Below are positions 2,744 to 64,000 of a stretch of DNA of 64,000 nt, piece by piece. Position numbers and translations under genes: made by a program. Every line of letters starts with the position of its first letter. Within the stretch, counting starts at the first letter, position 1. The notes beneath the pieces are model-generated. The model searched no databases. It saw only the letters and a program-made list of their open reading frames with translations, and was not told the DNA's origin. The stretch comes from Candidatus Bathyarchaeia archaeon (GTDB lineage: Archaea; Thermoproteota; Bathyarchaeia; Bathyarchaeales; DTEX01), in assembly GCA_038820405.1 (NCBI GenBank), contig JAWAXL010000001.1, positions 1,208 to 65,207 of the forward strand. The letters are read 5' to 3'.

Positions 2744-2771
2744 TCCTCCTAATATTATAATATTAGGAGGA
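2744..2771. promoter_or_regulatory. perfect 28-bp palindrome TCCTCCTAATATTATAATATTAGGAGGA overlapping the SD of the flavoprotein operon
   Basis: Verified base by base as self-complementary. It lies between a TATA-like GTTATATAAG (2729-2738) and ATG 2786. Its 3' arm is the only GGAGG ribosome-binding sequence for that ATG. Confidence 0.6.
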
Positions 2772-2785
2772 AAGGAGTAAGTTTT

Positions 2786-7682: not shown

Positions 7683-9608
7683 TTAAAGTATTTCTAGTGC
7701 GAGGTTAAAGGCTTCATGTATTGCATCCAAGGACTTTCTAGGCTTTACGCAATCTCCAACCATATAAACTTTTTCCCCAAACTCTTCTTTGAGTTTCTCA
7801 GCTAGAGTTTTGTTTGGTTTTGATCCTACGGCAAGAACTATACTATCAGCCTTAATGAACTCCTCTTTACCATCCCTTTCAACATACAATCCACCCTCCA
7901 CAATTCTCGTGACCTTTGCTTTCGTTAAAACCTTGACGTTATTCCTTCTAAGAAACATTATGTCGATCCATCTCGTTGTGATACCAACATCTTGAGCTAT
8001 TTTTTCAAGCATTTCAATGAGGGTTACCTTCTTCCCCCTCTCAACTAGGAATTCTGAGACCCAAACGCCAACGCCCCCACCACCAACAACAGCCACCTCA
8101 TCGCCCTTAACATTAATCTTTTCATCTAAAACATCCCAAGAAATAAGAACGTTCTCTCTATCTACTCCCTCTATGTTTGGAACAATTGGTTCTGCTCCTG
8201 TTGCAACGATGATTATATCAGGGTTATATTCCCTAGCGATGTCTACATCGGCTTCAGTATTAAGTCTAATGTCGACGCCAAGTTTTCTGAGCTGAGACTC
8301 GAAATAGTCAATTAATAGTTTAAATTCCTCATGTCCCGGAGGTTTAAGGGCAAGGTTTATTTGTCCTCCAAGCCTCCCGGTTTTCTCCAACAAAGTGACT
8401 TTATGACCTTTAACTCTAGCCATTAAAGCCGCTTCCATTCCAGCTGGCCCACCACCAATAACTAGAACATTTTTAGGTTTACTTGTCGGAGTGAACTTAA
8501 CTTCGCCCTCCCTGCCAACCGTGGGATTCACTAAACATGTAACATCTTTATCCATAAATATCCTGTCAAGGCAACCTTGATTGCATGCTATACACGGCCT
8601 GATATCCTCAATTCTACCTTCATATGCTTTTTTAGGAAATTCAGGGTCGGCTATTAGTGGTCTACATATGCGGATAAAATCAGCCTTTCCCTCTCGAAGA
8701 ATCTCTTCTGCAATTTCAGGCGTATTTACTCTTGTGCCAGCGATAACTGGTATACTTAAAATTTTCTTAATCTCATGTGATAAATATATGAACCCTGCCC
8801 GAGGAACATGGTAAGTTATTAAGGGTCTCGGAGATTCGTGCCAGCCCTCAAGTGTATCTATAGCATCCACGCCAGCCCTCTCCAAACATTTAGCAATAAC
8901 CTTTGTTTCTTCGACGGTGTTTCCACCTGGAATAAATTCATCAAGGGTGATCCTGCAAATTACTGGAAAATCCTTTCCAATCTCCTCTTTTATGAGCTCA
9001 ATAATTTCAAGCAGAAACCGCGTCCTATTCTCTATACTCCCACCATAATTATCCGTTCTCTTGTTTGTTAAAGGAGATAGAAATTCACTTATAAGATAGC
9101 CCCCAGCAGCCGAAATTTCTATCAGATCGAACCCGGCGTCCACTGCCCTTCTCGCGGCTTTAGCAAAATCAGCTTCCAGTATCTTAATTTCGTCGACACT
9201 TAATTCCCTTGGAGTCTCGCCTGTTAAACGCGAGGCTATTGGCGATGGAGCAACTGGTTGATCACCTATAATTGATGAGAGAGCATATCTACCAGCATGG
9301 AAAAGTTGTGCACCAACTTTTATGTCACCATAATTTTTGATGCTTCTCACCAATCTCCTCAAACCATCAATATATTTGTCATCATAAATTGCAATCATAC
9401 TATGTGAGATTATCCCAAGAGGGTGGACAGTGCATCCCCCTACAATTATTAGCCCTACCCCACCTTTGGCCCGTTCAACGTAAAAATTTATGAGTCTATC
9501 TGTCACAAAACCATTCTCCGCATAGCCAAGGTGTACTGCTGGCATAACAATTCTATTTCTAAGTTCAAGTTTTCCAATCTTACCTGGCTTAAAGAGGTTA
9601 TAAAACAA
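7683..9608 (-). CDS. enoate reductase / 2,4-dienoyl-CoA reductase family flavoenzyme (OYE TIM barrel + [4Fe-4S] + FAD/NAD(P) domain)
   Basis: 641 aa. OYE-like N-terminus (RIVMPAVHLGY, LFHAGR), Cys cluster CIACNQGCLD..C, and C-terminal GGGPAGMEAA and VVGGGGVG dinucleotide folds. TTG start follows GAGGGAAAGTGA. Confidence 0.85.
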   Translation of the reverse strand: MFYNLFKPGKIGKLELRNRIVMPAVHLGYAENGFVTDRLINFYVERAKGGVGLIIVGGCTVHPLGIISHSMIAIYDDKYIDGLRRLVRSIKNYGDIKVGAQLFHAGRYALSSIIGDQPVAPSPIASRLTGETPRELSVDEIKILEADFAKAARRAVDAGFDLIEISAAGGYLISEFLSPLTNKRTDNYGGSIENRTRFLLEIIELIKEEIGKDFPVICRITLDEFIPGGNTVEETKVIAKCLERAGVDAIDTLEGWHESPRPLITYHVPRAGFIYLSHEIKKILSIPVIAGTRVNTPEIAEEILREGKADFIRICRPLIADPEFPKKAYEGRIEDIRPCIACNQGCLDRIFMDKDVTCLVNPTVGREGEVKFTPTSKPKNVLVIGGGPAGMEAALMARVKGHKVTLLEKTGRLGGQINLALKPPGHEEFKLLIDYFESQLRKLGVDIRLNTEADVDIAREYNPDIIIVATGAEPIVPNIEGVDRENVLISWDVLDEKINVKGDEVAVVGGGGVGVWVSEFLVERGKKVTLIEMLEKIAQDVGITTRWIDIMFLRRNNVKVLTKAKVTRIVEGGLYVERDGKEEFIKADSIVLAVGSKPNKTLAEKLKEEFGEKVYMVGDCVKPRKSLDAIHEAFNLALEIL

Positions 9609-9791
9609 TCACTTTCCCTCGCAATCTAGTTAATTAGTAAAAAAAATCATCTTTAGCAAATTTAAAGTTTATCATCAGAAAATGATGGCAAATTTTATCA
9701 ATATATTTATTGAGTAAGATAGCGATAAAAGAATAGTTTTAGTGAAAATTATAAATAAATCTCTCTACAGTAGATTTTTTGGTGAAATGAA

Positions 9792-10961
9792 ATGAGTGTT
9801 GATGAATTAACTGAAGAACAAAAGTTAATTGTTCAATCCGCCAGGGAAATTATAAAAAAGTTTAATCCAGAGTACTGGAGAGAGAAAGATAGAAAGAAGG
9901 AGTGGCCGCGCGAATTTCATGAAGCTCTTACTGAGGCGGGGTTTTTCGGAATATTAATTCCTGAGAAATACGGAGGAAGCGGTTTTGGCCTTAAAGAATT
10001 AATTCTTGCCGTTGAAGAACTTACAAAAGGTGGAGCTGGTGCAGGAGCCTATGCGCAGCTTCTCTTGCCTGAAGTATTTGGTGGGGTAACTCTTGTTAAA
10101 CATGGTACCGAAGAGCAGAAGGAGAAATATTTGCCAAGGATCGTTAAAGGAGAAGTTGCCTGCTTAGCATTAACCGAGCCCGAGGCAGGGGTCAACACAT
10201 TTAAAATTAATACTATGGCTGTAAGGGATGGCAACGAATATGTGATAAACGGTAGAAAAATATGGATTTCAGGTGTCGACAAATCTAAACTAATGGTGCT
10301 CGTGGCAAGAACCTCTCCTTACGATCCGTCTAAAAAGACTCATGGATTAAGTATTTTTCTTGTAGATTTGCCAAATGATTCCATTGAGATAACCCCGATT
10401 GAAAAGCACGGATGGAACTGGGAAGAAGCATTTAATGTCTATATTAATGATCTTCGCGTTCCCAAAGAAAATTTACTTGGAGGAAAAGAGGGACAGGGTT
10501 GGTGGCAGATAGTAGATACGCTTAACCCTGAAAGAATTATGGTAGCTATTGCAGCATATGGCATAGGTGACCTGGCAATCCGCAAAGCCGTTGAATATGC
10601 AAACCGAAGGGTTGTCTTCGAAGCTCCCATTGGATCATATCAAGGTATTCAATTCCCCTTAGCCAAGGCAAAAGCTAACTTAGAAGCTTCTAAGTTACTT
10701 GTGTATAAGGCGGCAGATCTTTTTGATAAAGGTAAACCATGCTTCACTGAAGCATGTATGGCTGCTCTTACCGCTATTGAAGCTGGTATCGAGGCGGTTT
10801 TCTATTCTATGCAAGCTTTTGGAAGCTATAGCTATGCCCTCGAGTATGATGTTGAGAGGTGGTGGAGAGAGGTACTTCTATTCAGACTTGCGCCAATACC
10901 ATACAATATGCTACTAAATGAGATAGCTAGGTTCATTTTAGGAATGCCAAAGTCTTACTAG
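9792..10961 (+). CDS. acyl-CoA dehydrogenase
   Basis: 389 aa with GFFGILIPEKYGGSG and LTEPEAGVN motifs and the full ACAD three-domain length. The usual YEGT catalytic-Glu site reads APIP. Helix G reads NPER, suggesting an IVD/LCAD-like base position (inference). Confidence 0.88.
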   Translation: MSVDELTEEQKLIVQSAREIIKKFNPEYWREKDRKKEWPREFHEALTEAGFFGILIPEKYGGSGFGLKELILAVEELTKGGAGAGAYAQLLLPEVFGGVTLVKHGTEEQKEKYLPRIVKGEVACLALTEPEAGVNTFKINTMAVRDGNEYVINGRKIWISGVDKSKLMVLVARTSPYDPSKKTHGLSIFLVDLPNDSIEITPIEKHGWNWEEAFNVYINDLRVPKENLLGGKEGQGWWQIVDTLNPERIMVAIAAYGIGDLAIRKAVEYANRRVVFEAPIGSYQGIQFPLAKAKANLEASKLLVYKAADLFDKGKPCFTEACMAALTAIEAGIEAVFYSMQAFGSYSYALEYDVERWWREVLLFRLAPIPYNMLLNEIARFILGMPKSY

Positions 10962-11022
10962 ACTCTTTACTCCCTTATCCTCTCAAATTTTAAATTTAGT
11001 CTTACCTTTTTTAATCCATGGG

Positions 11023-13158
11023 GTGAAAATTATATTGAGCAAAAAGTATGGAGAAAGGGTGAAAGTATATAAAAGTACTTGTCGCATGTGTCACGGAGGA
11101 TGTGGAGTACTCGTTCACGTAAAAGATGGAAAGATTATAAAGATTGAGGGTGATCCAGAGTCTCCACTGAGCAGAGGCACGATGTGTGTTAAATGTCTAG
11201 CCTCCTTAGAGCATGTGTATAACCCGTATCGCATCAAGTACCCAATGAAGAGGATAGGGGAGAGAGGTGAAGGAAAGTGGCAGCGCATCTCATGGGACGA
11301 AGCCCTCAATAGCATAGCAAGCAAGCTTAAGGAAATTAGAGAAAAGTATGGACCTGAATCCATCGCTATTGGTCAAGGTACCGGTAGACACCATTACTTC
11401 TTTGTAGTTAGGTTCGCTAATGCGCTTGGAACCCCAAATTGGTGCGAACCAGGTTTAGCTCAATGCTTCCTGCCTAGAGTTACAGTGAGTTTAATCACCT
11501 ACGGAGACTTCTTTGTTTGTGACTATTATGGAGATATTTCTCCTAAATGCTTGTTAGTATGGGGTCATAACCCATTGGTAACGGGGCCTGATGGAGAGAT
11601 CGCTGTTTTAGTGCGTAGATGTCTTGGTAAGAATCCCAAGTTAATTGTTGTGGATCCTAGACGCACCGAGATGGCTGAAAAGGCAGATCTATGGTTACAG
11701 ATTAGACCAGGTACTGATTGTGCTTTAGCTTTGAGTATGCTGAACGTCATTATCAATGAGAATATTTATGATAAAGAATTCGTTGAGAAATGGACGGTTG
11801 GATTTGATAGATTATGTGAGCATGTTAAACAGTATACTCCTGAATGGGCAGAGAAAGTTACATGGATCCCTGCGGAAAAAATTAGGGAGGCGGCTAGAAT
11901 GTATGCTTTAACGAAGCCTGCATGCATTGAGTGGGGTGTTGCTCTCGAACATACGCCAAACTGCATTCAAACCCTTAGAGCCATCGCACTCCTACCAGCA
12001 GTAACTGGCAATATTGATATTCCCGGCGGGAATATTTTTGGGATGCATATTGTACGGCCTTTCCCTTTCCTTTATGATAAATTGCCAGCCGAAATGTGGG
12101 AAAAAAGATTAGGATCTGATAAATTTAAGCTTCTTTGCGGCCGGGAGGCAGTTCTCCCCTCGGCTCATGCCTCTACACTATTTAAGGCAATGCGTACAGG
12201 CAACCCCTATCCCATTAAAGCTTTTCTTGTTTTTGGTAATAATGCACTTGTAACATACGCCAATTCTAAAGAGGTGTATGAAGCATTAATGAACTTAGAG
12301 CTTTTAGTGGTTACGGACATCTATATGACACCGACAGCTGAAATTGCTGATTTTGTACTTCCCGCAGCCACGTGGCTTGAGGTTGACGAGATAGTGGCAT
12401 TTCCATACCTTGCAGAGAACGTCGTTCTCGTACAACAGAAAATAGTGGGAGTGGAAGAAGCCAAGCCAGATGAGTGGATACTAATTGAGCTGGCTAGAAG
12501 GTTAAATTTGCCACATGGCACTGAATCACTAGAGGAAGTTCTTAATTATCAATTAGAGCCTTTAGGCATTACTTTCGAGGAGCTTAAGAAGAGAGGTTAT
12601 GTGTCAGTCCCCATAAAATACAGGAAATATGAGGAGAAAGGATTTAACACCCCATCTGGTAAAGTTGAACTTTATTCAAGCATTCTAGAAAAGCTAGGGT
12701 ATGACCCCCTACCACATTACAAGGAGCCCCCAGAAAGTCCGGTTAGTACGCCAGAGCTTGCGAGAGAATACCCATTAATATTAATAACAGGAGGGAGGAC
12801 GCCATGCTTCTTCCACTCAGAGGGTCGTCAGATTCCGTCATTACGCAAACTTCATCCGGACCCCATTGTAGAGATTCACCCAGAAACGGCTAAAGAATTA
12901 GGTATTAAAGATGATGATTGGGTACTCATAGAGACACCAAGGGGAAGAATTAAACAGCGGGCTAAGCTCACAGACGGGATTCACCCAAAGGTGGTGCATG
13001 TTGAACATGGATGGTGGTTTCCGGAAAAACCAGCCCCAGACCATGGAGTTTGGGAGTCAAACGCAAATTTGCTAACAAATAATGGTCCACCCTACGATCC
13101 AGCTATGGGAACATATCAGCTGAGGGCATTATTATGCAGAATATCTAAACTTGGTTAA
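11023..13158 (+). CDS. molybdopterin (bis-MGD) oxidoreductase, DMSO-reductase superfamily, cytoplasmic
   Basis: 711 aa. N-terminal [4Fe-4S] motif CRMCHGGCG..x27..C, no twin-arginine signal, and a C-terminal molydopterin-dinucleotide-binding beta-barrel region (IHPETAKELGIKDDDWVLIETPRG). Confidence 0.85.
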   Translation: MKIILSKKYGERVKVYKSTCRMCHGGCGVLVHVKDGKIIKIEGDPESPLSRGTMCVKCLASLEHVYNPYRIKYPMKRIGERGEGKWQRISWDEALNSIASKLKEIREKYGPESIAIGQGTGRHHYFFVVRFANALGTPNWCEPGLAQCFLPRVTVSLITYGDFFVCDYYGDISPKCLLVWGHNPLVTGPDGEIAVLVRRCLGKNPKLIVVDPRRTEMAEKADLWLQIRPGTDCALALSMLNVIINENIYDKEFVEKWTVGFDRLCEHVKQYTPEWAEKVTWIPAEKIREAARMYALTKPACIEWGVALEHTPNCIQTLRAIALLPAVTGNIDIPGGNIFGMHIVRPFPFLYDKLPAEMWEKRLGSDKFKLLCGREAVLPSAHASTLFKAMRTGNPYPIKAFLVFGNNALVTYANSKEVYEALMNLELLVVTDIYMTPTAEIADFVLPAATWLEVDEIVAFPYLAENVVLVQQKIVGVEEAKPDEWILIELARRLNLPHGTESLEEVLNYQLEPLGITFEELKKRGYVSVPIKYRKYEEKGFNTPSGKVELYSSILEKLGYDPLPHYKEPPESPVSTPELAREYPLILITGGRTPCFFHSEGRQIPSLRKLHPDPIVEIHPETAKELGIKDDDWVLIETPRGRIKQRAKLTDGIHPKVVHVEHGWWFPEKPAPDHGVWESNANLLTNNGPPYDPAMGTYQLRALLCRISKLG

Positions 13159-37016: not shown

Positions 37017-37910
37017 TTGAGGGTTGTTGGTGGACCATCTTCCCTAGATTTAGCCAGAAGGATAAGTGAGCTCCTAAATGCCCCGCTAGTCGACGTTAGA
37101 ATGAAACGTTTCCCTGACGGAGAATTCTACTTTAAGTTTGAGGAGAACATTGCTGGAGAGCACATCATAGTTGTACAGAGTCTGGAGTCCCCGCAGGATA
37201 TACATTCCATGGAGTTATTTCTAATACTGCATACCATGAGGGATCTCGGTGCGGAGACAATCAGGGTCTTCATCCCATATCTCGCATACAGCCGTCAGGA
37301 TAGACGGTACCTTGAGGGCGAGTGCTTAAGCTCAGCTGTAATAGCTGAGACAATTGAGAATTTAGGTGCTGACGCCCTATATACTATTGACGTACATAAT
37401 GAAAGGGTTCTAAAAATGTATAAGATTCCAGTGTATAATTTAACTGCCTCCGGCGAGCTGGTAAGATATTTTACCGGAAAGGGACTGAGGGATCCAGTTA
37501 TTATAGCCCCTGATGATGAGGATATGGCTAAGAGGAGGGCTCAATATGCCGCTAGGATACTTAATGCCGATTGGGATGCCCTAAAGAAGAAAAGAGACCG
37601 CTATACGGGGGAAATAGTAACTTTCTCAAAGGAATTAAATGCCCGTGGCAGAGACATTATTATAATAGATGATATAGTGAGCACAGGTAAGACTGCGGCA
37701 AACGCCGCAAAGATACTTAAGGAGCAGGGTGCAAGAAGAATATTTCTTGGGGCATCACATCTCCTACTCATGGGGGATGCTGAGAAAATTATTATGGAGA
37801 GTGGAGTTGAAGAAATAGCTGGGACAGATAGTATTATAAATAAATATGCAAAGGTTTCTGTAGCCCCTATATTTGTAAGAGCCTTAAGTGGAGAAATAGA
37901 GCAATTATAG
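37017..37910 (+). CDS. prs: ribose-phosphate pyrophosphokinase
   Basis: FPDGE, YLAYSRQDRR, and the PRPP-binding loop IIIIDDIVSTGKT. Confidence 0.88.
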   Translation: MRVVGGPSSLDLARRISELLNAPLVDVRMKRFPDGEFYFKFEENIAGEHIIVVQSLESPQDIHSMELFLILHTMRDLGAETIRVFIPYLAYSRQDRRYLEGECLSSAVIAETIENLGADALYTIDVHNERVLKMYKIPVYNLTASGELVRYFTGKGLRDPVIIAPDDEDMAKRRAQYAARILNADWDALKKKRDRYTGEIVTFSKELNARGRDIIIIDDIVSTGKTAANAAKILKEQGARRIFLGASHLLLMGDAEKIIMESGVEEIAGTDSIINKYAKVSVAPIFVRALSGEIEQL

Positions 37911-49719: not shown

Positions 49720-50643
49720 TTAAAGACACTCTTTAACGATTAATTTAGCGAGTCTTACTTTATCTTCTAAGGTTCTCATTATAGTGTCAGTTAAGATAAC
49801 TCTTATTCCAAGACTCTCTATCTTTTCCTTTTCTCCCTTGTCTGCATAGTCTAAAACAAAGGTGTTTAAAAAATCCCTATATAAATATGCTGCCGAGTAT
49901 GCTGAGACTTCTAGCCCAAGCCCCCTCATAAGTTTGTCTGCAGGACCCTTTATTGGCGCTCCCGCCACTATTGGGCTTATCGCCACTTTAGAAGCCCTGC
50001 TGATTCTCAGGGCCTCCCTTAAACCCTTAATGGATAATATTGTGCCTATACTTACGATTGGATTACTTGGACAGATAATTATTAGTTTGCCGCCGAGTAT
50101 GGCTTCAATAACACCTTCAGCTGGTTTAGCGCTCTCAGCGCCTAGATACTTTACCCCAAGAACCTTATCCCTAGCACCCCTTTTAACAAGATATTCCTGG
50201 AAGTGCATTAATCCAGCATCAGTTTCGATCCAGGTCTCAAATCTATCGTCAGTCATCGGTATTATATTAGCCCTTACACCTAGGCTCTTACAGATTTCCT
50301 TTGTTGCTTGAGAAAGTTTTAGCCCCTTTTTTAGGAGGAGGGTTCTATGGATATGTGTTGCAAGGTCTCTGTCGCCTAAATTGAACCATATCTCGTAACC
50401 ATATCTCCGCAACATCTCTAGGCAATGGAAAGTATCGTTTTTTATACCCCAACCCTTCTCCTCATCAACTATGCCAGCTAGGGTGTAGGTTATTATGTCT
50501 AGGTCTGGTGAAATGTGCAGTCCATAGAGCTCTATGTCATCTCCTGTATTAACGATCACTGTTAACTTTTCCTCAGGGATCACCCTAACAAGCCCTGAGA
50601 GAAATTTTGCTGCGCCCACACCGCCAGCCAAAGCTGTTATCAT
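49720..50643 (-). CDS. cofD: 2-phospho-L-lactate (or EPPG) transferase CofD, F420 biosynthesis
   Basis: MITALAGGVGAAKFL..VIVNTGDD..HISPDLD is the CofD N-terminal signature. ATG 50643 follows GGGGAG and overlaps the upstream gene's TGA (ATGA). The track start 50658 is a TTG. Confidence 0.88.
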   Translation of the reverse strand: MITALAGGVGAAKFLSGLVRVIPEEKLTVIVNTGDDIELYGLHISPDLDIITYTLAGIVDEEKGWGIKNDTFHCLEMLRRYGYEIWFNLGDRDLATHIHRTLLLKKGLKLSQATKEICKSLGVRANIIPMTDDRFETWIETDAGLMHFQEYLVKRGARDKVLGVKYLGAESAKPAEGVIEAILGGKLIIICPSNPIVSIGTILSIKGLREALRISRASKVAISPIVAGAPIKGPADKLMRGLGLEVSAYSAAYLYRDFLNTFVLDYADKGEKEKIESLGIRVILTDTIMRTLEDKVRLAKLIVKECL

Positions 50644-51326
50644 AGACTGACTCCCCAATAATCTTTAAAGGCTATTTCTTTAAGTGGTTTTCTGGATGGC
50701 GGCTCGGGGTTCTCGGCTGGATAACCGACTGTTATTAGGGCTTGTGGCTCAATATCACGGGGCATCTTTAAAGTTTTCCTGACGGTTTCTTGACAGAATA
50801 GTGGTGCGCAGAACCAGCATGCGCCTAGCCCCTCGGCGTGAGCGACTAAAAGAATGTTCTGTATTGCGGCGGCTAGGCTCTGCGTCGCCATTAAATGCTC
50901 AAATCTCTGCCTCCTCCTATCAGGATACCTATGCATCTCCCTCATGGTTATCGCTGCCACTATCAGGATCGGTGCCTCTGAAAAGCGCCTAATGGAGTCC
51001 TCAGTCAGTCTTTTTGTCTCCTCTTGGGGGTGACCATCCCTCTCAAGATCTCTCAGCCAATCTGAGGCCATTGCCTCGGCAAGTTTTTTCTTAACGCTTG
51101 GATCAAATATTACTATGAAGCGCCATGGCTGGGCATTGTGGGCGGATGGAGCCCACCTCGCGGCATCAATTATTCTAAGGATGGCATCTTTCGGGATACC
51201 CCTTGGTAAATAGGATCTGATACTCCTTCTGCCCTCAATAATATCTCTCAAGAATGATGGCATGTTTTCACCATTTAATATGGGAATTGAGTGCTGAGAT
51301 AAATTTGTAATAAATTGATTACTCAT
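50640..51326 (-). CDS. nitroreductase-family flavoprotein (FbiB C-terminal-domain-like?)
   Basis: RRSIRSYLPRGIPKDAILRIIDAARWAPSAHNAQPWRFIVI is the classic nitroreductase fold N-terminus. Translationally coupled to cofD. ATG 51263 is a possible alternative start. Confidence 0.8.
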   Translation of the reverse strand: MSNQFITNLSQHSIPILNGENMPSFLRDIIEGRRSIRSYLPRGIPKDAILRIIDAARWAPSAHNAQPWRFIVIFDPSVKKKLAEAMASDWLRDLERDGHPQEETKRLTEDSIRRFSEAPILIVAAITMREMHRYPDRRRQRFEHLMATQSLAAAIQNILLVAHAEGLGACWFCAPLFCQETVRKTLKMPRDIEPQALITVGYPAENPEPPSRKPLKEIAFKDYWGVSL

Positions 51327-55865: not shown

Positions 55866-56091
55866 AAAGAGGAAAAATAAACCACTAATCCACCCTATTT
55901 TTCTCTTAAGCTCCATTCTAGCCGAAGCTGAAGGTAAACTACAAACAATTAAATCTTTTATATTTCTGACTCCAAAATTATCTCGTGGTCTCCCTTGGCT
56001 AGGGTTGGAAGCGCTAGGCTACTAACATATAAGCATATTGGGAGAGTATATAGCCTAGAAATCCTCAGGAAAATTTTAGAGGAGTCAGAAG

Positions 56092-56532
56092 TTGCCCATA
56101 AGGGTAAGGGCGAAGATTAAGAGCCTAAAGGGATTGAGGGTCGGAAGCAGCATCGAAACCAGCACACTCCTAAATACCGGGTATACTGGAGCCTCACCTG
56201 AGATAATCGTGCCAATTAGATTAGCTGAGAAGCTAGGCTTATGGCCGCCGCCAAACGGAGCAATAGAATCCACATATGATACCGCTGGAGGCCCAGCAAG
56301 GTTCTATATCATTAGAGAGGCGGCAATACTACAGGTAATCGGAGAGGACTCAGTCTTAAAAGAACTCGTGGTAGACATAGTTATCTCACCAATGGAGAGG
56401 GAAGTACTACTAAGTGACTACGTGATAGGCGAGCTGGAAATAATCATACTAAACGCATACAAAGGCACATGGAAATTCCAAACTGACCCACAAGAAAAGA
56501 TAAGATGCAGCGAAAAACCAGAACTCTGGTAA
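56092..56532 (+). CDS. retropepsin-like (clan AA) fold protein with Asn in place of catalytic Asp
   Basis: 146 aa, TTG start after GAGGAG. ETSTLLNTGYTGASPEIIVPIRLAEKLGL parallels the hhhDTGa...lp...a..LGL motif of small archaeal/bacterial clan AA proteases, but reads NTG. Confidence 0.35.
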   Translation: MPIRVRAKIKSLKGLRVGSSIETSTLLNTGYTGASPEIIVPIRLAEKLGLWPPPNGAIESTYDTAGGPARFYIIREAAILQVIGEDSVLKELVVDIVISPMEREVLLSDYVIGELEIIILNAYKGTWKFQTDPQEKIRCSEKPELW

Positions 56533-56566
56533 AAAAAGGAAAAGAGCAGATTTGGATAAGACTTCT

Positions 56567-57682
56567 TTAGCCTAACACTCTACGCTGGAGGATCAGCCTA
56601 AATCTTCGAAAAGCCCTGTGCGCAGCGAAACCAAAAAGCACACATGAGACCACTAATATAGGCCACAGATTAGCCAGCGTTAAGCCATCCGAATCGAGTG
56701 CATAAGCCGAGTCAACAATGAATCCACCAACAGGCCTAGGCGGAAGAACCCAAATATACGCTGTAACACTAATTTTCTCATCAGGTTTTAGAGTTGTTGG
56801 CCCCCAGTAATATGCTACGGCACTATCAAGATTAGTGTCAGCAATCTGCCGGCTTGGGTTGATAGTGTAACACCAGCTGTTATTGTAAAGCCCTGACGGA
56901 CCCCACGCTCCAAAAATGAAATTGTCTGGTCGGCTTGGGCTGAGCATTGAAGGCTCTGTGATCGAGCCGCAGACTATTAGTGTTGGATCCGCTGGGTTGT
57001 CCGTTGCCTCCCAATACTTAAAATTTGGCTGAGACCATATATGCTCAGAGTTAAGCCAACCTGATGTTGGATTAACAGCCCTAAGCCATGAGCCATCATT
57101 CCACGCAACCTTAAGATCCCAGAGATAGCGAATACCAACATTATAGAAATACGTGTTATTAGTATTCCTGACGGTCATCGTTATCCTAACATAAGTATCC
57201 ATCCAATTTGAGCCCAAAACCTCAATATCCTGAGTTACATTAAGCCCCTCAGGTGTACTCCACCGAATAACCATCCTTGTCTGGGTTAATTCAATTTGTG
57301 GGCTAACGTTATCTAGAATGCATAGGGAGAAGCCCGTGCAAGAATTTATATTGACTGTATCGCTCTCAGTTATATAATCCTTCTTAACCCCTATAGTTTC
57401 ATTGAGTATGTGAACAGTGTTATATGATGTCCAGGCATCGCCATCAACACCAAACTGTAGAACATCCTGATCTGGAACTGGATGATATGGCCCAGTACAA
57501 ATAGTATATGTTCCAACGCCATCATAACCAGTTTCATTCTCAATGTAGACTGTTAGTATACCATTACTTATGGAGACCTCAGACCCACCTCCATCACCAG
57601 CATAAACCAGAGCTGGGACAAGTGAAAAGACAGCTAATAGAAGGAATATTGATAGAAGAGCCTTAAAATCAATTTGCCCCAT
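56567..57682 (-). CDS. surface protein with N-terminal signal peptide and C-terminal TM anchor, many N-glycosylation sequons
   Basis: Signal LLSIFLLLAVFSLVPALVYAGDGGG. C-terminal LWPILVVSCVLFGFAAHRAFRRFR. At least 8 N-x-S/T sequons. No family recognised. Confidence 0.55.
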   Translation of the reverse strand: MGQIDFKALLSIFLLLAVFSLVPALVYAGDGGGSEVSISNGILTVYIENETGYDGVGTYTICTGPYHPVPDQDVLQFGVDGDAWTSYNTVHILNETIGVKKDYITESDTVNINSCTGFSLCILDNVSPQIELTQTRMVIRWSTPEGLNVTQDIEVLGSNWMDTYVRITMTVRNTNNTYFYNVGIRYLWDLKVAWNDGSWLRAVNPTSGWLNSEHIWSQPNFKYWEATDNPADPTLIVCGSITEPSMLSPSRPDNFIFGAWGPSGLYNNSWCYTINPSRQIADTNLDSAVAYYWGPTTLKPDEKISVTAYIWVLPPRPVGGFIVDSAYALDSDGLTLANLWPILVVSCVLFGFAAHRAFRRFRLILQRRVLG

Positions 57683-57775
57683 ATAAACAACACCTATCTA
57701 GCTCAAACAGACTAATATTCTATTATCTAAGGGCATTAAGACTTTTCATAAGCTACTCGCCTTAGGCACCCCTCT

Positions 57776-58585
57776 TTACGGATTCTCCCCCTCCCTCCTC
57801 TCAGCGGCCCTCTGGATCCTCTCCATGACATGCTTTGGCAGGGCTATATCCTCCCTCCGCATCTCCACCGGTCCGAGTATGGTCAGCCCCCTGCCCGGGA
57901 GAATCATTATCTCATGTAATTGTAGGCTGTGGTTTGTCTGCCTCATCTTCTCAATTAAGATATAGCGCCTTAGGACACCATCCCTAACAAACCTCCTAAA
58001 CCTTATTATTCCATCGGCTATGTGCTCGACGCCCCAGCCGAATGCCTCAGATGTTGTTATAGCGTACTGCGATGTCGCCATAATAGTGAAGTCCCACTTT
58101 GAGAGAACCTTCTTCACGAAGTATGAGTATCTCCTAGCCATAGCGGGCTTATCTAGCCAGAACGCTGATAAAGAATCTATTACTAGGCGTGCCCTACCAT
58201 AGCCTAAAGCCTTCTTAGCCTCGATAACCTTATTCACGAGCTCCTCAACATCTAGGCTCTGGAGAGACCACTCATCCTGACGCCCCATCAAAGCATCAAT
58301 TATCACAATCCTCTTTTGAGAGATTCCTGTTGAAAAGTCGAAGCCGAACTGGGCTGCCTGTGTAATGATTGACTCCCTACTCTCCTCCGTAGTAACATAT
58401 ATGCACTTATCCCCCTCATTAACGCCCTGGGCAACAAAATGTATACATAATATTGTTTTTCCGGTTCCAGGTTCACCAGTAATGGCTACCATAAAACCCT
58501 TAGGTATACCGCCCTCAAGCATAGCATCTAAGTCTGGAACGCCAGTTGACAAACGCTCAATATGCATTAATTCTCCAGCCCTCAA
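57776..58585 (-). CDS. single-domain KaiC/RecA-superfamily ATPase
   Basis: STGVPDLDAMLEGGIP, Walker A GEPGTGKT, Walker B RLVIDSLSAF. 269 aa. Confidence 0.85.
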   Translation of the reverse strand: MRAGELMHIERLSTGVPDLDAMLEGGIPKGFMVAITGEPGTGKTILCIHFVAQGVNEGDKCIYVTTEESRESIITQAAQFGFDFSTGISQKRIVIIDALMGRQDEWSLQSLDVEELVNKVIEAKKALGYGRARLVIDSLSAFWLDKPAMARRYSYFVKKVLSKWDFTIMATSQYAITTSEAFGWGVEHIADGIIRFRRFVRDGVLRRYILIEKMRQTNHSLQLHEIMILPGRGLTILGPVEMRREDIALPKHVMERIQRAAERREGENP

Positions 58586-58606
58586 AAATAGTCTATATAA
58601 ACAAAA

Positions 58607-59230
58607 TTAATAATTGTAGTGCTGAAATAATCCGGGCTTTATATTCAAATATACTAGTGGCCCCCTCTCCCTAGATAATCTTATGATTCTTGAGCTAACT
58701 GCATTATAGATGCTTAGCGGGTCTAAGGCTACGACGCTATCTTTATCGGTTCTTTGTAGGCGTCTTGCTATCTCCTCAATTACAAGGTTATCGGCTATGA
58801 ACTCCGTCATGCAGATCTCGACGTGCTCCACGAGCTTCTTAATAACCATGCTCCTCAACTCATCCCTCCACTCCATCTCCTGCAGAATCCTCCTAGCCCT
58901 CTTAACCCTCTCAACATGATCCCTCGGCTCCTCAAACTTCGTTAAAAGTATTCTGACGCGCTCCTTCCACTTCCTAAGCCACATACTAGCCCAAAAGCTC
59001 AACGAGGTTTTGAAGTTATTCGGGTTCTCCCTAAGTATATCCTCAACCTTCCTATAAATCTCTCTGGAGTCATCGATACCCATCTTAACCCTCAGCCATG
59101 TCTCTAAATCTTTCGAGGAATAGGCAACCATCTGATAGTCCGTGGTATATGGTTTAAACTGAGGAATGAAGGACTCAAACTCCTTAGCCAGAAGCGAGAA
59201 TAATCTGCTCCGAATGTTCACAGCACTCAT
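58607..59230 (-). CDS. helical hypothetical protein co-transcribed with KaiC-like ATPase
   Basis: 207-aa ORF, 21 nt upstream of the KaiC-like gene on the same strand. No motif recognised. Confidence 0.45.
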   Translation of the reverse strand: MSAVNIRSRLFSLLAKEFESFIPQFKPYTTDYQMVAYSSKDLETWLRVKMGIDDSREIYRKVEDILRENPNNFKTSLSFWASMWLRKWKERVRILLTKFEEPRDHVERVKRARRILQEMEWRDELRSMVIKKLVEHVEICMTEFIADNLVIEEIARRLQRTDKDSVVALDPLSIYNAVSSRIIRLSRERGPLVYLNIKPGLFQHYNY

Positions 59231-59311
59231 TCAGGTACACTCACACATTATTCTTTATACTCCAAAACATAGATTTAAAAGTTGCTCGAAGCAGTCTCGT
59301 AGAGTCCCTGT

Positions 59312-60226
59312 TTAACGGAGGTTACTGGGTAAATCGGTTAGTCTTGGAAATCCGTCCCTAGCTCCCATCTTTGTTAAGCATCTTGAGGCTACAAAGTTTC
59401 CTAGGATACCACAATCTCTTAGGCTTTTCCCCCTAAGAAGCCCATAAATAAATCCGGCGCAGAAAGCATCCCCTGCCCCAGTCGTATCAACAACCTCGGT
59501 CTTAAATGGCTCGATTAAATGGCTCTCTGATCCATCTGTAACATAGCAGCCTCTCTCCCCTAGCTTCACGGCAATAATTTTTACGCCCTCTCTTAAGATA
59601 ACTTTAACACCCCTCTCATAATTTTCCTCACCTGTTAAGAGTCGTAGCTCCTCCTCATTCGGTAGAAACACATAACTCCTCCTAATTATTGGCTTGAGGG
59701 CATCCAGTCCCCTCCGAGCATGTATTATTCCAGGATCAAATGTCACCTTAACACCCTTGGGAAGAACCTCTAGAAGCCTCCTCTGCGCCTCAAAGGGGGA
59801 TGAGCCGGCGAATGAAGTTAAATGTAGAATTCTAACACCTCTAACATAATCAACATTAATCTCATTAAACTCTAATGTATTGTTTACCCCTGGATCTAAA
59901 TATAATGCTCTATTACCCGTTTGATCAACGAAGCCTATAACTGCCCCGCTCTTACCCATCTTAGAGATTATTATCCCACTGACATCCACACCCTCATCTA
60001 TAAAGGATTTAATTAGGAGTCTCCCCTCCCTATCGTCCGCAACCTTACCAATATAGCCAACCCTAACGCCAAGCCTCGCCAAACCCACAGCAGTATTGGC
60101 AGCCGACCCGCCCGGCGACTCCCTGAAATCAAGTATTATGCTCTCCTCATCGGCTCCAGCCAACTTATCAACCCTATAGAGCTTATCCATGTTCAGGGCT
60201 CCAAAACAGACAACTTCTAGGCTCAT
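59312..60226 (-). CDS. PfkB-family sugar/nucleoside kinase
   Basis: N-terminal [15 protein letters not shown] and C-terminal [18 protein letters not shown] signatures. The ATG overlaps the Ftr-like stop (4 nt). Confidence 0.85.
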
Positions 60227-61155
60227 GAAAGTGTCTCCCTTAAATATATTTTATATTTGCCAAGCCTACCACCGTAATTTCCAGCGGAGATTCTCACAAC
60301 GCCCTTGACTGAGGAGGCGGCTTCTATCCCAGCCCTCATAGCCTCCTTAACTGAGTCTAATGTAAGTCCATTTATCACTATTTCTGGGATGTACCGTACG
60401 CCCTCAGGAACTTTTGATTCAAGACCGAGCTTACTCTTTAGTGAGGGGCAGTAGGGATGGTTTGTTGTCGGGCCTATATGTGGGAATCTTGTCTCCGGCT
60501 TCGAGCCTGCTGAGCATATATCAAATGGAGTAATAACTCCATGAACTTGGCTTATAGCCCTTAAAGCTTTTTTCCCAGCCTTAAGCACAGCTCTCTTCGT
60601 TCGGCACATATACCAGAAATTCCCGCCCATAACACCCCGCCCATAGCCTAAATAACGCTCAATCTTAAAGTCCGGAACCATTATTGGAACTATTATTATT
60701 TCTCGGCCATATAGGTTCTCAGTCCACTCGTATCCGTCACCACAGTGCCCAATAAATTCCATTGTATCAACCTTACCTATTGGGTTTGGGCATGAATTGA
60801 AGACTGCTGTGAAGGGCTTAACAAGAATATCTTGCCTAACCCTATAAGAGAACTCCCTGTAGAATCTTCTCACAACATCATCAAGAGGCTTTCTCTCATC
60901 TATTCCACTCCAGAACTGTAGTATGACGCCGGGCCGCCCATCAGGGGTCTCTGCTCTAGGAACCCACCGCTCTATACCACCCTCTATACGGCCTATCACC
61001 GTAGAGGGTGTGGCGGTAGCATCCTCAGCAGCTTTCCTGAGAGTCCACATGTCATCAGCAGTGACGAGTATCCTAAAATATAGGCCATCAAAAGCCTCGG
61101 CATAAATATCCTCAATTAGAACGCTCAAACCTGTCACCGAAAAATAAAGCATCAA
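60223..61155 (-). CDS. formylmethanofuran:tetrahydromethanopterin formyltransferase (Ftr) family protein
   Basis: [52 protein letters not shown] and [17 protein letters not shown] align along the whole length with canonical Ftr, as I recall it from Methanopyrus. Confidence 0.85.
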
Positions 61156-61362
61156 TAAAAATTATATAATGAATGGCTAACGCTCTGCTCTACTGGATAT
61201 TATTTCTTTTTCTCCTCTTCTTCCTTCTTTTCCTTACCCTTCTTCCGCTTTGATATGCAGCAGCTTGGCAAAACCATCACCTAAAATATCTTCAGAGCTG
61301 AAGGTGTTATTTTAATATTTTCTGTCTAAAAACTTTGATGTTTAAGTACTGATGGCAGCATA

Positions 61363-62439
61363 TTAGCCTAGAGATCCTATAGTCTCCCCTCTAACCGTCT
61401 TCCTAAAGGCTGTACTCTCATGTATTAGGCGCTCCATGTTTTCTGGGGTTATTCTCTCAACCCATGGGGCCTTATCGGGGTAGAGCTTTTTAAGGCGCTC
61501 CAATAGACTGGGGTCACAATATCCCTCTAGGGAGGATATATCCCATTCCTCAGATAAGCTGAGCACATGCTCCTTACCATACCTCCTAAACTGCTCAGCT
61601 AATACAGCTAAAATAATAGCATCATGCGACATGATTGCTACCTCAGCCTCTCTAATGGCATATTGGTTTCCATTAAATGAGATTGTTAATCCACCGCCAC
61701 CCCTAACCAGCCTAAATGGTTCCACATCAGTTATGCTATCGCCAACATAGATGACTGATGATAGCCTACCATGTAATAACGAGACTATCTCCTCAACAGC
61801 CCTAGCCTTCTCATATCCACCAATAGGATTCACTTCTATAAGCGCTCTACCTATCTTCATATTTATTATTTCTTCCCAGAAAATTTTATCAAGACGCCTA
61901 ATAATCTCCTGCGTTTTTACTGGAAGATCCTCAAACGACTTTGCCCTTGTAGGGATCTCTATCATCGACATATTAACTATCTCTTCCTTTAGAGCTTTTA
62001 TTCTCTCCACCTCATCCTTAGGCACCTCAAACCTATCTATATTTATTCTCGTGCAATAGACATTCTTCCTCGGGAAATCTATGGCCTTGCAGAGGGTGTC
62101 TATATAAGGCTCATAGCTTGTGCTTATAATAAAGGCTGGCATAATTGAACGAATGTAACGTAGCGTCTCAGCGGCTCCCGGTATCAATAGTAGCGTCTCT
62201 GAGGAGAAGTATCTTATGAGATCATTTGTCGCACCATAGGCCCTCAGAAACGGAATTATTAGCTTAAGTGTATCTCCAGCCTTATATCCAGGTCTCTTAA
62301 TAATATCTGCTAGAACATCATCATACCTACTTATTATGGTAAAGAGCCTATTGCCATCGGGTATAAACCAGCTCGTGAGTTCGAATGCATTATCATTTTT
62401 TGAGACTGGTCCCTCACAGTCAGTTATGTATATTGCCAT
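61363..62439 (-). CDS. HAD-superfamily phosphatase-like protein (EhaR-like)
   Basis: N-terminal IYITDCEGPVSKNDNAFE (HAD motif I variant D-x-E) and late YVGDSITD (motif IV). From memory it resembles proteins annotated as energy-converting hydrogenase A subunit R. Confidence 0.55.
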   Translation of the reverse strand: MAIYITDCEGPVSKNDNAFELTSWFIPDGNRLFTIISRYDDVLADIIKRPGYKAGDTLKLIIPFLRAYGATNDLIRYFSSETLLLIPGAAETLRYIRSIMPAFIISTSYEPYIDTLCKAIDFPRKNVYCTRINIDRFEVPKDEVERIKALKEEIVNMSMIEIPTRAKSFEDLPVKTQEIIRRLDKIFWEEIINMKIGRALIEVNPIGGYEKARAVEEIVSLLHGRLSSVIYVGDSITDVEPFRLVRGGGGLTISFNGNQYAIREAEVAIMSHDAIILAVLAEQFRRYGKEHVLSLSEEWDISSLEGYCDPSLLERLKKLYPDKAPWVERITPENMERLIHESTAFRKTVRGETIGSLG

Positions 62440-63860
62440 TGAATTCCCTTCCTCAAAGCCTCCATGTGCTTTATGCTGCGCCCAATGTGCTCTTTTGAGG
62501 CTATGTCATTTCTATACCATAGTGCTCCACCCTTAATAGCCCTTATGCCCTCCATCGCTATCTCTCGAGCACTTTGTATGTCATCGGCTATTCCCAGTAC
62601 TGCAACAGCCCTAGAAGACAACGCGTAGCTCTTACCATCCTCACGGAGCTCCATGGAGCCAGGATAAATCCTGATATTATCACCATACTTCTCTGAGAGC
62701 TTCTCAGCATTCTCTAGGATAACTGGTGTTCCTATTTCGTCCCTCTTAACCAAGTGTGGGGAGAATTTTATGTATTCGCCGTATGTTGGTGGAACCTTAT
62801 AGACAACCACCGCAGCCCTACTCTCGACATTTATATGGGTCAGCGTCCCCTCAATCATTCTAAAGCAGATGTCAACAAAGTCATCCTTCAAGAGGGCTAA
62901 TATAGGTATTATCTCCGGATCTCCAGGCCTACTATTATTCTCCAGTATCATTGGTCCCCTACCAGTATGTATGAAGGCCTCATAGAAAGGCATTCCACGC
63001 AGATTTGGATTTGATCCATCGCCCTTAAGTCTCTCAAAGATCCTCTCAATAATTTTCTTCTCCTTCTCCCAGTCCTCAGTCCTCATGAAGGGTAAGATAT
63101 ACCACCTATCCTTATATGTCCCCATCCCACCAGTATTCGGCCCCCTGTCCCCTTCAAAGGCCCTCTTATAATCCCTTGTCTCAGGAAGGGGGACAATGTG
63201 CTTTCCATCGCAGAATGCTTGGAAGCTCGACTCCTCACCCTCAATCTTCTCCTCAACTACAACTGGACCTACCTTAAAGTTCGCTAGGAAGTGTTCTAGG
63301 AGTTCCTCGCGAGTGTTAAAGTGGTCTCCCCAGACGCCAACGCCCTTACCAGCAGCCGGGGCATCTGGCTTAACAGCCACCTTATTGTCGAGTTCGTCAA
63401 GCCACTTATATAGGTTCCTCTTAACATCCTCTATACTGCTATAATCCTTAGGGTCAAACACTTTAAACTTCGGGTTAACCTCGGGGGCAACCTCTTGGAA
63501 GAGGATCCTCTGTAGAACCTTGCTCCTCTCAAGAGCATATTCCCTTGTAGGACATATCATTGGTATGCCAAGCCTGCCCTCAATTAAGTCCCTTATTCCC
63601 TCAATTATTGGTTTTTCAGGACCAACTATACCGAAGTCTATCTCATCCTTACGTTTTTCTGCAAATTTATATATGGCATTAACGTTAAGATCGGGTATTA
63701 CAACATGATCCTCAGCTCTACGGACATTAAAGGGGTTCCTCTGTCTATCAGCAATATATAAATCAACCTTATATTTACCGCTTCTTGCAAAGGCGTCAAC
63801 CATGGCAGCCTCCCTAGAACCATAAGAAATAACAAGAATTCCAACCCGCTCCATAAACAC
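62424..63860 (-). CDS. purD: phosphoribosylamine-glycine ligase (PurD) family ATP-grasp enzyme
   Basis: VISYGSREAAM, AAGKGV, EEKIEGEESSFQAF, GPNTGGMGTY, ENNSRPGDPE. At 478 aa it is somewhat longer than typical PurD. A 16-nt overlap with the downstream HAD gene. Confidence 0.8.
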   Translation of the reverse strand: MFMERVGILVISYGSREAAMVDAFARSGKYKVDLYIADRQRNPFNVRRAEDHVVIPDLNVNAIYKFAEKRKDEIDFGIVGPEKPIIEGIRDLIEGRLGIPMICPTREYALERSKVLQRILFQEVAPEVNPKFKVFDPKDYSSIEDVKRNLYKWLDELDNKVAVKPDAPAAGKGVGVWGDHFNTREELLEHFLANFKVGPVVVEEKIEGEESSFQAFCDGKHIVPLPETRDYKRAFEGDRGPNTGGMGTYKDRWYILPFMRTEDWEKEKKIIERIFERLKGDGSNPNLRGMPFYEAFIHTGRGPMILENNSRPGDPEIIPILALLKDDFVDICFRMIEGTLTHINVESRAAVVVYKVPPTYGEYIKFSPHLVKRDEIGTPVILENAEKLSEKYGDNIRIYPGSMELREDGKSYALSSRAVAVLGIADDIQSAREIAMEGIRAIKGGALWYRNDIASKEHIGRSIKHMEALRKGIQWQYT

Positions 63861-63961
63861 TCGCCAAAATAAGCTAAGTATCGTCCCCCTATTAGAAAAT
63901 TCCTAAGTTGAGTAATTTTTTTAACGTAGTTAATTATAAAAAGAGTGCTAGGAGAAAAGTT

Positions 63962-64000
63962 ATGAATAATCCACCTGCGATAATTGGTATTGGTAGGACC
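63962..64000 (+). CDS. start of an unidentified gene running off the right edge
   Basis: ATG 63962 lies 7 nt after AGGAG. MNNPPAIIGIGRT.. Only 13 codons are visible. Confidence 0.25.
   Translation, partial: MNNPPAIIGIGRT

Follow-up and report, generated by a model that had tools for sequence, protein, structure and literature searches.

We propose that four adjacent genes in a 64,000-nucleotide stretch of DNA from a Candidatus Bathyarchaeia archaeon (assembly GCA_038820405.1, contig JAWAXL010000001.1; the whole stretch is called the window below) encode steps 2 and 3 of de novo purine synthesis, a reading that we consider reasonably probable. PurD would make glycinamide ribonucleotide (GAR), and a module of three further proteins would deliver formylglycinamide ribonucleotide (FGAR) to PurL: an HAD-family protein of the type known as EhaR, a divergent member of the Ftr family of formyltransferases, and a kinase of the PfkB family with a ribokinase fold. 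All three look catalytically competent as judged from their sequences, and together they are at present the strongest candidates for the GAR-formylation enzyme, which in several archaeal groups has yet to be found. What the comparison shows is gene content, conserved synteny, non-orthologous replacement of the formyltransferase and retained catalytic residues; from these we infer which pathway step is served, what donates the formyl group and, most of all, what the HAD protein and the kinase do.

The four co-directional open reading frames (ORFs) lie on the minus strand between positions 59312 and 63860 of the window (Table 1). The string, its coordinates and its two overlaps had been described in the first-pass annotation, and all are borne out by the ORF list and the sequence. 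PurD and the HAD protein overlap by 16 nt (HAD start at 62439, PurD stop at 62424), and the Ftr-like and PfkB genes by 4 nt (PfkB start at 60226, Ftr-like stop at 60223), an overlap through which the latter two genes are translationally coupled. The string is composed of two tight pairs, purD-HAD and Ftr-like-PfkB, separated by a gap of 207–234 nt; this gap contains a TATA-like box (TTATATAA) and probably serves ftr2-pfkB as its promoter. Inserted genes split the pairs in some relatives (L004, L036, L047, L065 and L084). A small ORF within the gap, encoding a 25-residue Lys/Glu-rich peptide (MVLPSCCISKRKKGKEKKEEEEKKK), may be a chance ORF.

A first neighbourhood was taken from a relative with an 81%-identical HAD protein. 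For the larger set of loci, an alignment of the closer HAD homologues (A2) was scanned against one genome per GTDB species, and the best 80 loci were viewed over 10 kb on each side, with ORFs annotated by BLAST with pur and module queries; counts below refer to loci with enough sequence. The HAD proteins of these loci are 51–79% identical to that of the window. Of the 80, 79 are titled Bathyarchaeia or Bathyarchaeota (one only ‘Thermoproteota’) and one Thorarchaeota, so that the set lies outside Methanobacteriales, Methanopyrus and ANME-1. The genes typically run purF-purD-ehaR-ftr2-pfkB and face a convergent purQ-purL-purS-purM(-purP) set. PurD stands immediately upstream of the HAD gene in every testable locus (71/71), with PurF directly upstream of PurD in 48 of 63; an Ftr-like gene follows the HAD gene in 66 of 74 loci and PfkB in 57 of 68, the 4-nt overlap between them recurs in 55 of 61, and purQ or purL is found within 10 kb in 38 of 54. 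This arrangement is far beyond chance, and the conservation of the gene neighbourhood, proposed earlier as a check on the string, holds. On a 2.2-Mb Bathyarchaeial contig (L004), for example, purF-purD-HAD is followed by two inserted genes and Ftr-PfkB, and the opposite strand carries purQ, purL, purS, purM, an FMN reductase gene and purP. In the lineage of the window itself (L001–L003 and L008–L013) the linkage to purF and to purQLSM has been lost. Steps 1, 2, 4 and 5 of the pathway are encoded around the trio, and only step 3, the conversion of GAR to FGAR, is missing from the cluster; because the non-pur genes lie between purD (step 2) and purLQS (step 4), the trio sits where step 3 belongs. 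By tblastn, the window and the 80 loci contain neither a PurN-like nor a PurT-like sequence, the loci being covered over 10 kb on each side.

Two further features of these neighbourhoods were seen. In eight Bathyarchaeial species (L016–L019, L026, L037, L041 and L058) purD-HAD lacks Ftr-PfkB downstream despite available sequence; the pair is presumably located elsewhere in those genomes, or another solution is used. Further, an FMN-reductase/flavodoxin-like gene recurs near the module (L004, 19403–19831, between purM and purP; L017; L150; and L091, 10936–11598, directly after the gene for the A. fulgidus protein AF1437), and may be a further component or a coincidence.

The formyltransferase of the module proved to be interchangeable. 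A search for the HAD family among 1.84 billion representative proteins yielded 645 clusters, some of which are fusions: in P0298 a PurN-like Formyl_trans_N domain is joined to the HAD domain, on a contig of bacterial type with RuvAB, and in P0311 and P0335 the partner is a divergent PurT-like ATP-grasp domain, whose best NCBIfam and PDB matches are to PurT and whose motif NEISYRPDDAGFVTLISH matches EVSPRPHDTGMVT of PurT. The contigs of the PurT-like fusions are about 4 kb long and their context is uninformative. As separate genes, a PurN-like gene overlaps the HAD gene on an archaeal contig (L088), the order PfkB-PurN-like-HAD occurs on a bacterial-type contig (L089), and a degenerate PurN-like gene lies beside the HAD gene in L090. 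In the reciprocal test, the PurN-like subfamily was scanned against metagenome contigs; the HAD gene adjoins the PurN-like gene in 45 of 56 testable metagenomic loci, and the full trio of PurN-like, HAD and PfkB genes is present in 30 of 38. The gene order was PurN-like-HAD-PfkB in 23 loci and PfkB-PurN-like-HAD in 17. Some of these loci lie among purine genes, as in purQ-purL-purF-pfkB-purNlike-HAD (L105), purL-purF-pfkB-purNlike-HAD (L108) and purF-purD-purNlike-HAD-pfkB-folD, facing purH (L129). The PurD and HAD proteins of L129 are 58% and 50% identical to those of the window and, as far as sequence comparison can tell, L129 is the same cluster, in which a tetrahydrofolate-type formyltransferase, together with FolD, which makes its donor, replaces the Ftr-type enzyme.

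Because the HAD and PfkB proteins stay in place while the Ftr-like protein is swapped for a PurN-like or a PurT-like one, we regard formyltransferase, HAD protein and kinase as the functional unit. On this comparative evidence the formyltransferase slot has undergone non-orthologous displacement around a constant core of HAD and PfkB proteins. The PurN-like partners keep the N-x-H...D residues of PurN, L090 excepted, and the formyltransferases of the module are far from canonical GAR transformylases (26–61 bits against a cut-off of 150 for the PurN-like proteins, 33 against 339 for the PurT-like). This divergence suggests an altered acceptor. The PurN-like protein of L090 (8317–9330) has LLFRPALP and no N-x-H residues, carries a long Asp/Glu-rich C-terminal tail, and may be a non-catalytic partner. 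The purine genes of L129 are flanked by genes for the delta subunit of carbon monoxide dehydrogenase/acetyl-CoA synthase (CdhD) and a CooC-like protein and by folD and purH (1077–3008; 8918–11556); the CdhD, CooC-like and folD flanks tie the module in L129 to a folate-type Wood-Ljungdahl context.

The Ftr-like protein of the window has the FTR fold only (PF01913, 142.7 bits; PF02741, 193.8 bits), and its residues 12–307 align with 1M5H, 1M5S and 1FTR over the full length of the two-lobe architecture. No homology to PurN (Formyl_trans_N) or to the ATP-grasp domain of PurT was detected in it by Pfam. It passes the Ftr subfamily model NF002554 (345 bits, cut-off 297) and falls below the fhcD equivalog TIGR03119 (232.3 bits, cut-off 292.6). 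Its identity to three characterised archaeal Ftr proteins is 35–44%, compared with 59–68% among those proteins themselves, which places it as far from characterised Ftr as bacterial FhcD is. In an alignment of the Ftr-like proteins with Ftr and FhcD, 28 columns are invariant, and the equivalent of the catalytic Glu245 (M. kandleri numbering) is retained in all 69 Bathyarchaeial sequences, the three Ftr proteins and FhcD. The class has its own substitutions at 16 positions that do not vary across Ftr/FhcD, and these include a two-residue deletion of P201-G202. Within the top 120 homologues identity is at least 77%. Since the homologues are 301–305 residues long and the TATA-like box lies at 61162–61169, translation probably starts at TTG 61128 or GTG 61137 and not at TTG 61155, and the transcript would probably be leaderless or have a short leader.

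As to the company that this protein keeps, Pfam scans of 36 of the larger ORFs of the window detected neither hydrogenase genes nor fwd, mch, mtd or mer, in agreement with what had been noted from the sequence alone, with the caveat of one generic molybdopterin oxidoreductase (711 residues, with an Fe4S4 domain), the sole gene of the window that is conceivably formate-dehydrogenase-like or FwdB-like. The neighbours of the Ftr-like gene in the 80 loci are purF, purD, purQ, purL, purS, purM and purP, as identified with pur and module queries and with no direct screen for fwd, mch, mtd or mer.

The HAD protein, which is 100% identical to an NCBI entry, has weak matches to Pfam and NCBIfam HAD models, and its homologues bear the KEGG-based JGI name ‘energy-converting hydrogenase A subunit R’. 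HAD motifs I–IV are present, with the nucleophile Asp, the Ser/Thr, the Lys and GDxxxD all kept; motif I has the unusual form D-x-E-G-P, a DxD variant with Glu instead of Asp at +2. Alignment A2 shows no variation at D7, E9, S106-T107-S108, K211, G233-D234 or D238. The AlphaFold model (predicted local distance difference test score 96.8) has a single close structural match, 1Y8A (AF1437), which is also a homologue by sequence (E 2e-31; template-modelling score 0.81–0.92 by fold); the next folds are HAD-IB phosphoserine phosphatases (SerB), ThrH, MtnX and 5'-nucleotidase III. A function as phosphoserine phosphatase supplying serine or glycine was considered and rejected, as merely the general HAD-IB fold is shared, at 10–13% identity. 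The protein ends in a conserved tail, VRGxxxGxLG-COOH, whose conservation extends through the final residue in almost every member of the family, AF1437, P0298, P0311 and P0335 among them; L088 lacks it. Such conservation suggests a role for the free C-terminus, either inside an active site or in docking a partner. We also discarded the idea that the C-terminal glycine is a carrier-protein-like acceptor for the PurD ligase, as its amino group is blocked and the reaction would be chemically pointless. Among the window ORFs scanned with Pfam there are no hydrogenase genes that a subunit of the Eha [NiFe] hydrogenase would accompany, and the genes identified around the HAD gene in the fetched loci are pur genes, PfkB or formyltransferases; the name EhaR mirrors the operon position in Methanothermobacter only.

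For the PfkB kinase all NCBIfam equivalogs score below their cut-offs (ribokinase, 158.6 against 299.65; ribose-1-phosphate kinase, 144.5 against 330; IolC, 138 against 300), the second and fourth matches are ribose-1-phosphate kinases (144 and 124 bits), as they are for the kinase of L089, and the rfaE kinase model matches weakly (57.5 bits). The nearest structures are ribokinases and adenosine kinase. In 101 module-associated orthologues N12-x-D14, G39-G40...N44, E193 and D247-x-TGAGD253 are conserved, and, in alignments with ribokinase structures, the motifs N-x-D, GG...N, NxxE and DTxGAGD match those that bind ribose and carry out catalysis. With 37–49% identity between the window kinase and those of the PurN-like, Archaeoglobus-sp. 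and other versions of the module, these kinases are, by sequence, orthologous across versions. As in ribokinases and adenosine kinases, the motifs are compatible with an enzyme that phosphorylates a ribofuranosyl compound at its 5' position, which is the predicted function.

The gene upstream of the HAD gene had been called PurD-like, and the part of that label that stands is the ATP-grasp GAR ligase; a separate paralogue it is not. The alignment of its product with solved PurD structures covers the full length (2YW2, 144 bits, query residues 8–456) and includes the motifs GPNTGGMG and N-x-R-x-GDPE. The protein is 40–50 residues longer than the usual PurD, probably starts at ATG 63854 instead of GTG 63860, and scores 252.5 bits with the purD equivalog TIGR00877, 35 bits short of the cut-off of 288. 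Apart from this score and the extra length, nothing hints at another role. We nevertheless file it as PurD because of the synteny with purF in relatives, and on these alignments it is the genuine PurD of the cluster.

The literature offers a phyletic counterpart to these observations. Brown et al. (2011) found neither purN nor purT in two Archaeoglobi, M. kandleri and four methanogens (PMC3261824); the four, termed Methanomicrobiales there, are the Methanobacteriales M. thermautotrophicus, M. stadtmanae, M. smithii and M. ruminantium. Although purN and purT were not found in it, M. thermautotrophicus is a purine prototroph, and in M. stadtmanae the purine C8 derives from C2 of acetate even with formate present (PMC3261824), which fits a carrier-bound one-carbon (C1) donor and not free formate. 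ANME-1 likewise lacks purN and purT according to Chadwick et al. (2022), who also described an uncharacterised clade, Ftr2, in ANME-1, ANME-2a/b, Archaeoglobales, M. kandleri and M. marburgensis (PMC9012536). In Methanothermobacter, Kaster et al. (2011) reported EhaS, annotated as a formyltransferase, and EhaT, a ribokinase, to be co-transcribed with ehaA-R (PMC3087415); together with the EhaR name given to the HAD homologues by JGI, this confirms what the first-pass annotation had stated about EhaR/S/T. In the PurT-containing M. maripaludis the eha operon ends in unrelated genes, MMP1466 (CBS-domain) and MMP1467 (lineage-specific). The lineages with Ftr2 or EhaS largely match those reported to be without PurN and PurT. 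Neither Brown (PMC3261824) nor Chadwick (PMC9012536) connects Ftr2 with the missing purN and purT, and in the literature searched (full text) no function was assigned to EhaR/S/T or Ftr2, no glycinamide riboside kinases were described and no such proposal for the GAR step was found.

Based on these comparisons, PurD would make GAR, and the Ftr-like protein, the HAD protein and PfkB would act as one module that fills the GAR-transformylase step. Ftr and FhcD transfer a formyl group from formyl-tetrahydromethanopterin (formyl-H4MPT) to the primary amine of methanofuran (+4.4 kJ/mol), with Glu245 stabilising the oxyanion (PMC6926001). In the Ftr-like enzyme the glycinamide amine, a primary amine of comparable kind, would take the place of methanofuran and, by analogy with the reverse Ftr/FhcD reaction, attack the formyl group of N5-formyl-H4MPT or that of formyl-methanofuran, with the conserved Glu again stabilising the oxyanion. 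The HAD protein and PfkB would be obligatory partners that act on the ribose phosphate of the substrate/product pair. The constancy of this core suggests that the true formyl acceptor may not be plain GAR. One possible scheme is a cycle in which the HAD protein strips the 5'-phosphate from GAR, the formyltransferase formylates the resulting glycinamide riboside, and PfkB phosphorylates the formyl riboside to FGAR, so that one ATP would be spent and the step made irreversible. We favour a phosphate cycle because the pair persists with any donor (H4MPT, tetrahydrofolate or formate), the HAD protein is fused to the formyltransferase in two unrelated families, the formyltransferases are divergent and the kinase resembles riboside 5'-kinases; our confidence in the cycle is nonetheless low, and the reverse arrangement, in which a further phosphate is added for a time, is just as possible. 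That purine step 3 has a third, hitherto unrecognised and ATP-consuming route, with three enzymes, formylation of a dephosphorylated or differently rephosphorylated glycinamide riboside, and a formyltransferase slot of Ftr (H4MPT or methanofuran), PurN (tetrahydrofolate) or PurT (formate) type, is put forward as a tentative and still doubtful generalisation. A formyl phosphate intermediate was rejected, as PfkB kinases phosphorylate hydroxyl groups, and the rationale that a weak formyl donor needs the pull of ATP is weakened by the presence of the same HAD and kinase pair in the tetrahydrofolate version with folD.

The earlier suggestion had been GAR synthesis followed by formylation with the Ftr homologue in place of PurN or PurT, with cofactor tailoring as the alternative. 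Its core gains from the position within the pur supercluster, the displacement by PurN-like and PurT-like proteins and the phyletic match in the literature; what has to be revised is the standing of the HAD and PfkB proteins, which are no accessories. The alternative, in which the trio would tailor or recycle a C1 cofactor (methanofuran or methanopterin) or consist of soluble subunits of the Eha hydrogenase, could draw on the co-transcription of the Methanothermobacter genes with eha (PMC3087415), on the KEGG-derived name of the HAD protein and on the FTR fold, which implies binding of a methanofuran- or H4MPT-type compound. It is made very improbable by the tetrahydrofolate-type versions, in which a PurN-like partner stands with folD and purH (L129) or the module lies on a bacterial-type contig with RuvAB, where such tailoring makes little sense. 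Moreover, Pfam detected no hydrogenase genes in the window, and the neighbours of the trio identified by BLAST with pur and module queries and by precomputed Pfam matches are pur genes, with purF, purD and purL as the regular ones.

Somewhat more has to be said of two explanations that leave part of the string in more familiar roles. The Ftr-like protein might be the ordinary Ftr of an H4MPT-dependent Wood-Ljungdahl pathway, with PfkB a ribokinase feeding phosphoribosyl pyrophosphate (PRPP), the HAD protein a generic phosphatase and the adjacency to purD loose co-regulation. Its passing of the NF002554 cut-off, the annotation of homologues as Ftr by NCBI, the conserved Glu245, the high identity among the top 120 homologues, as for a core enzyme, and ribokinase as best NCBIfam match of PfkB all agree with this. 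Yet the low identity to characterised Ftr, the 16 changed positions, the absence of fwd, mch, mtd and mer from the window, the pur neighbours in the 80 loci, the replacement by PurN-like or PurT-like proteins at the same place with HAD and PfkB retained, the recurrent 4-nt overlap with PfkB and the wide failure at all ribokinase-type equivalog cut-offs lead us to consider it improbable. The main rival for the role of the HAD protein and the kinase is ribose salvage, for example from ribose-1-phosphate through ribose-1,5-bisphosphate to ribose-5-phosphate as a phosphopentomutase bypass feeding PRPP and PurF, in which case the formyltransferase alone would formylate GAR. The ribose-1-phosphate kinases among the matches of PfkB and of the L089 kinase speak for it, as does the HAD-PfkB pair found alone in L093, with a 4-nt overlap, and in the Archaeoglobus sp. 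metagenome-assembled genome L094, where the two genes are adjacent; a kinase and an HAD phosphatase that relocate a phosphate have a precedent in the ADP-heptose pathway. Salvage would leave unexplained that the HAD domain is fused to PurN-like and PurT-like domains and that its gene, in most loci, directly adjoins that of the formyltransferase or runs into it, that the trio persists outside pur operons (L089), that Ftr2 and PfkB are translationally coupled in 55 of 61 loci, and that the accompanying formyltransferases are all divergent from canonical ones, which suggests an altered acceptor; its probability is accordingly low in our estimate.

Keeping in mind that the support for a GAR-formylating module is comparative, several points weigh against it. 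In L093 and L094 the HAD/PfkB pair has no adjacent formyltransferase, and in A. fulgidus AF1437 is not beside Ftr or PfkB genes, so that synteny lends no support there. With the NCBI Ftr cut-off passed and the catalytic Glu in place, the Ftr-like protein could be an ordinary Wood-Ljungdahl Ftr, instead or also. Its membership in the clade of Chadwick's Ftr2 and Methanothermobacter EhaS is assumed. The anti-correlation of Ftr2 and PurN is imperfect because ANME-2a/b have both, and N10-formyl-H4MPT was deemed non-functional as a donor by Brown et al. (PMC3261824).

Table 1. Positions of the four-gene string and of other features of the window discussed in the text.
Feature	Positions	Strand	Basis or description
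Molybdopterin oxidoreductase, generic	11023..13158	+	Pfam
PRPP synthetase	37017..37910	+	Pfam
CofD (2-phospho-L-lactate transferase, F420 biosynthesis)	49720..50658	-	Pfam
207-aa protein, then KaiC-type ATPase	57776..59230	-	no family match; TIGR03881, 375 bits
PfkB (ribokinase-fold) kinase, 304 aa	59312..60226	-	PF00294, 204 bits
Ftr-family formyltransferase, divergent ‘Ftr2-like’, 310 aa	60223..61155	-	FTR and FTR_C domains
Intergenic gap between the pairs, putative promoter	61156..61362	-	sequence; TATA-like box at 61162..61169
Small ORF in the gap, 25 aa	61200..61277	-	possible chance ORF
Conserved C-terminal tail of the HAD protein	61363..61395	-	VRGxxxGxLG-COOH
EhaR-type HAD protein, 358 aa, predicted phosphatase/phosphotransferase	61363..62439	-	weak Pfam and NCBIfam HAD matches
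purD, GAR synthetase, 478 aa	62424..63860	-	GARS_N, GARS_A and GARS_C domains

Directly downstream of PfkB the window carries a gene for a 207-residue protein and one for a KaiC-type ATPase (Table 1). The same two genes occupy this position in the close relatives L001–L003 and L008–L013, L031 has only the 207-residue gene, further downstream, and most other Bathyarchaeia have purQ-purL in their place. The remainder of the window includes housekeeping genes recognised by Pfam (PRPP synthetase, ribonucleotide reductase, CofD, DNA polymerase D, glyceraldehyde-3-phosphate dehydrogenase and phosphoglycerate kinase); the presence of PRPP synthetase and CofD indicates that PRPP is made conventionally and that F420 is probably used. 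The molybdopterin oxidoreductase gene is surrounded by genes for an acyl-CoA dehydrogenase, an FAD-binding oxidoreductase and an amidohydrolase. An Rfam search for riboswitches (ZTP, purine or other) upstream of the module returned none in 14 PurN-like loci or in positions 56000–64000 of the window.

The formylation of GAR is essential, and its enzyme has been reported as missing in cultured archaea (PMC3261824, 2011) and in ANME-1 (PMC9012536, 2022). The comparative evidence joins two puzzles, the missing GAR transformylase and the role of EhaR/S/T, and offers three concrete candidate genes. If the proposal is true, the missing GAR transformylase of Archaeoglobi, Methanobacteriales, Methanopyrus, ANME-1 and Bathyarchaeia would be identified, EhaR/S/T would be re-assigned from ‘hydrogenase subunits’ to purine enzymes, and a route for methanopterin- or methanofuran-bound formyl groups into biosynthesis would be at hand. 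Eha is said, in work attributed to Lie and colleagues in 2012, to replenish formyl-methanofuran withdrawn for biosynthesis. Purine synthesis as a drain on formyl-methanofuran would give a biochemical reason for this anaplerotic role and for the co-transcription of Eha with the trio in Methanothermobacter. Many of the Bathyarchaeial ‘Ftr’ calls behind an inferred Wood-Ljungdahl pathway would then be purine enzymes, and Ftr homologues in Bathyarchaeia and in other archaea not yet cultured would not automatically denote that pathway. The obligatory pairing of the HAD protein with the kinase hints at new chemistry at the GAR-formylation step.

Among known systems, the closest parallel is EhaR/S/T, encoded by the three final genes of the eha operon in Methanothermobacter, which are of the same protein types and, as the lettering suggests, in the same order; EhaS and EhaT are likened here by their published description, hydrogenase genes are absent from our locus, and the trio instead follows purD, and purF in relatives. 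AF1437 of A. fulgidus, the structural-genomics protein of 1Y8A, belongs to the same HAD subfamily and shares D-x-E-G-P and the C-terminal RG...LG tail, but it is shorter (308 residues) and is encoded beside Asn-synthase-like and FMN-reductase genes, not beside purD, Ftr and PfkB. With Ftr (EC 2.3.1.101; 1FTR, 1M5H and 1M5S) and FhcD (6S6Y) the window protein has in common the two-lobe fold, Glu245 and, as proposed, formyl transfer between pterin N5 and a primary amine; it differs from Ftr in its purine-gene company and in the proposed amine, that of glycinamide riboside or ribotide and not of methanofuran. The proposed step is that of PurN, which uses 10-formyl-tetrahydrofolate, and of PurT, which uses formate and ATP, and divergent PurN-like and PurT-like proteins fill the same slot elsewhere; the window enzyme, in contrast, is not homologous to either, would use methanopterin- or methanofuran-bound formyl groups and is joined by two extra enzymes. 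Finally, in ADP-heptose synthesis a PfkB-family kinase (HldE/HldA) and an HAD phosphatase (GmhB) act in sequence on one sugar phosphate. The kinase and HAD protein of the module show no orthology to HldE and GmhB, and we expect them to act on a ribofuranosyl compound of the purine pathway.

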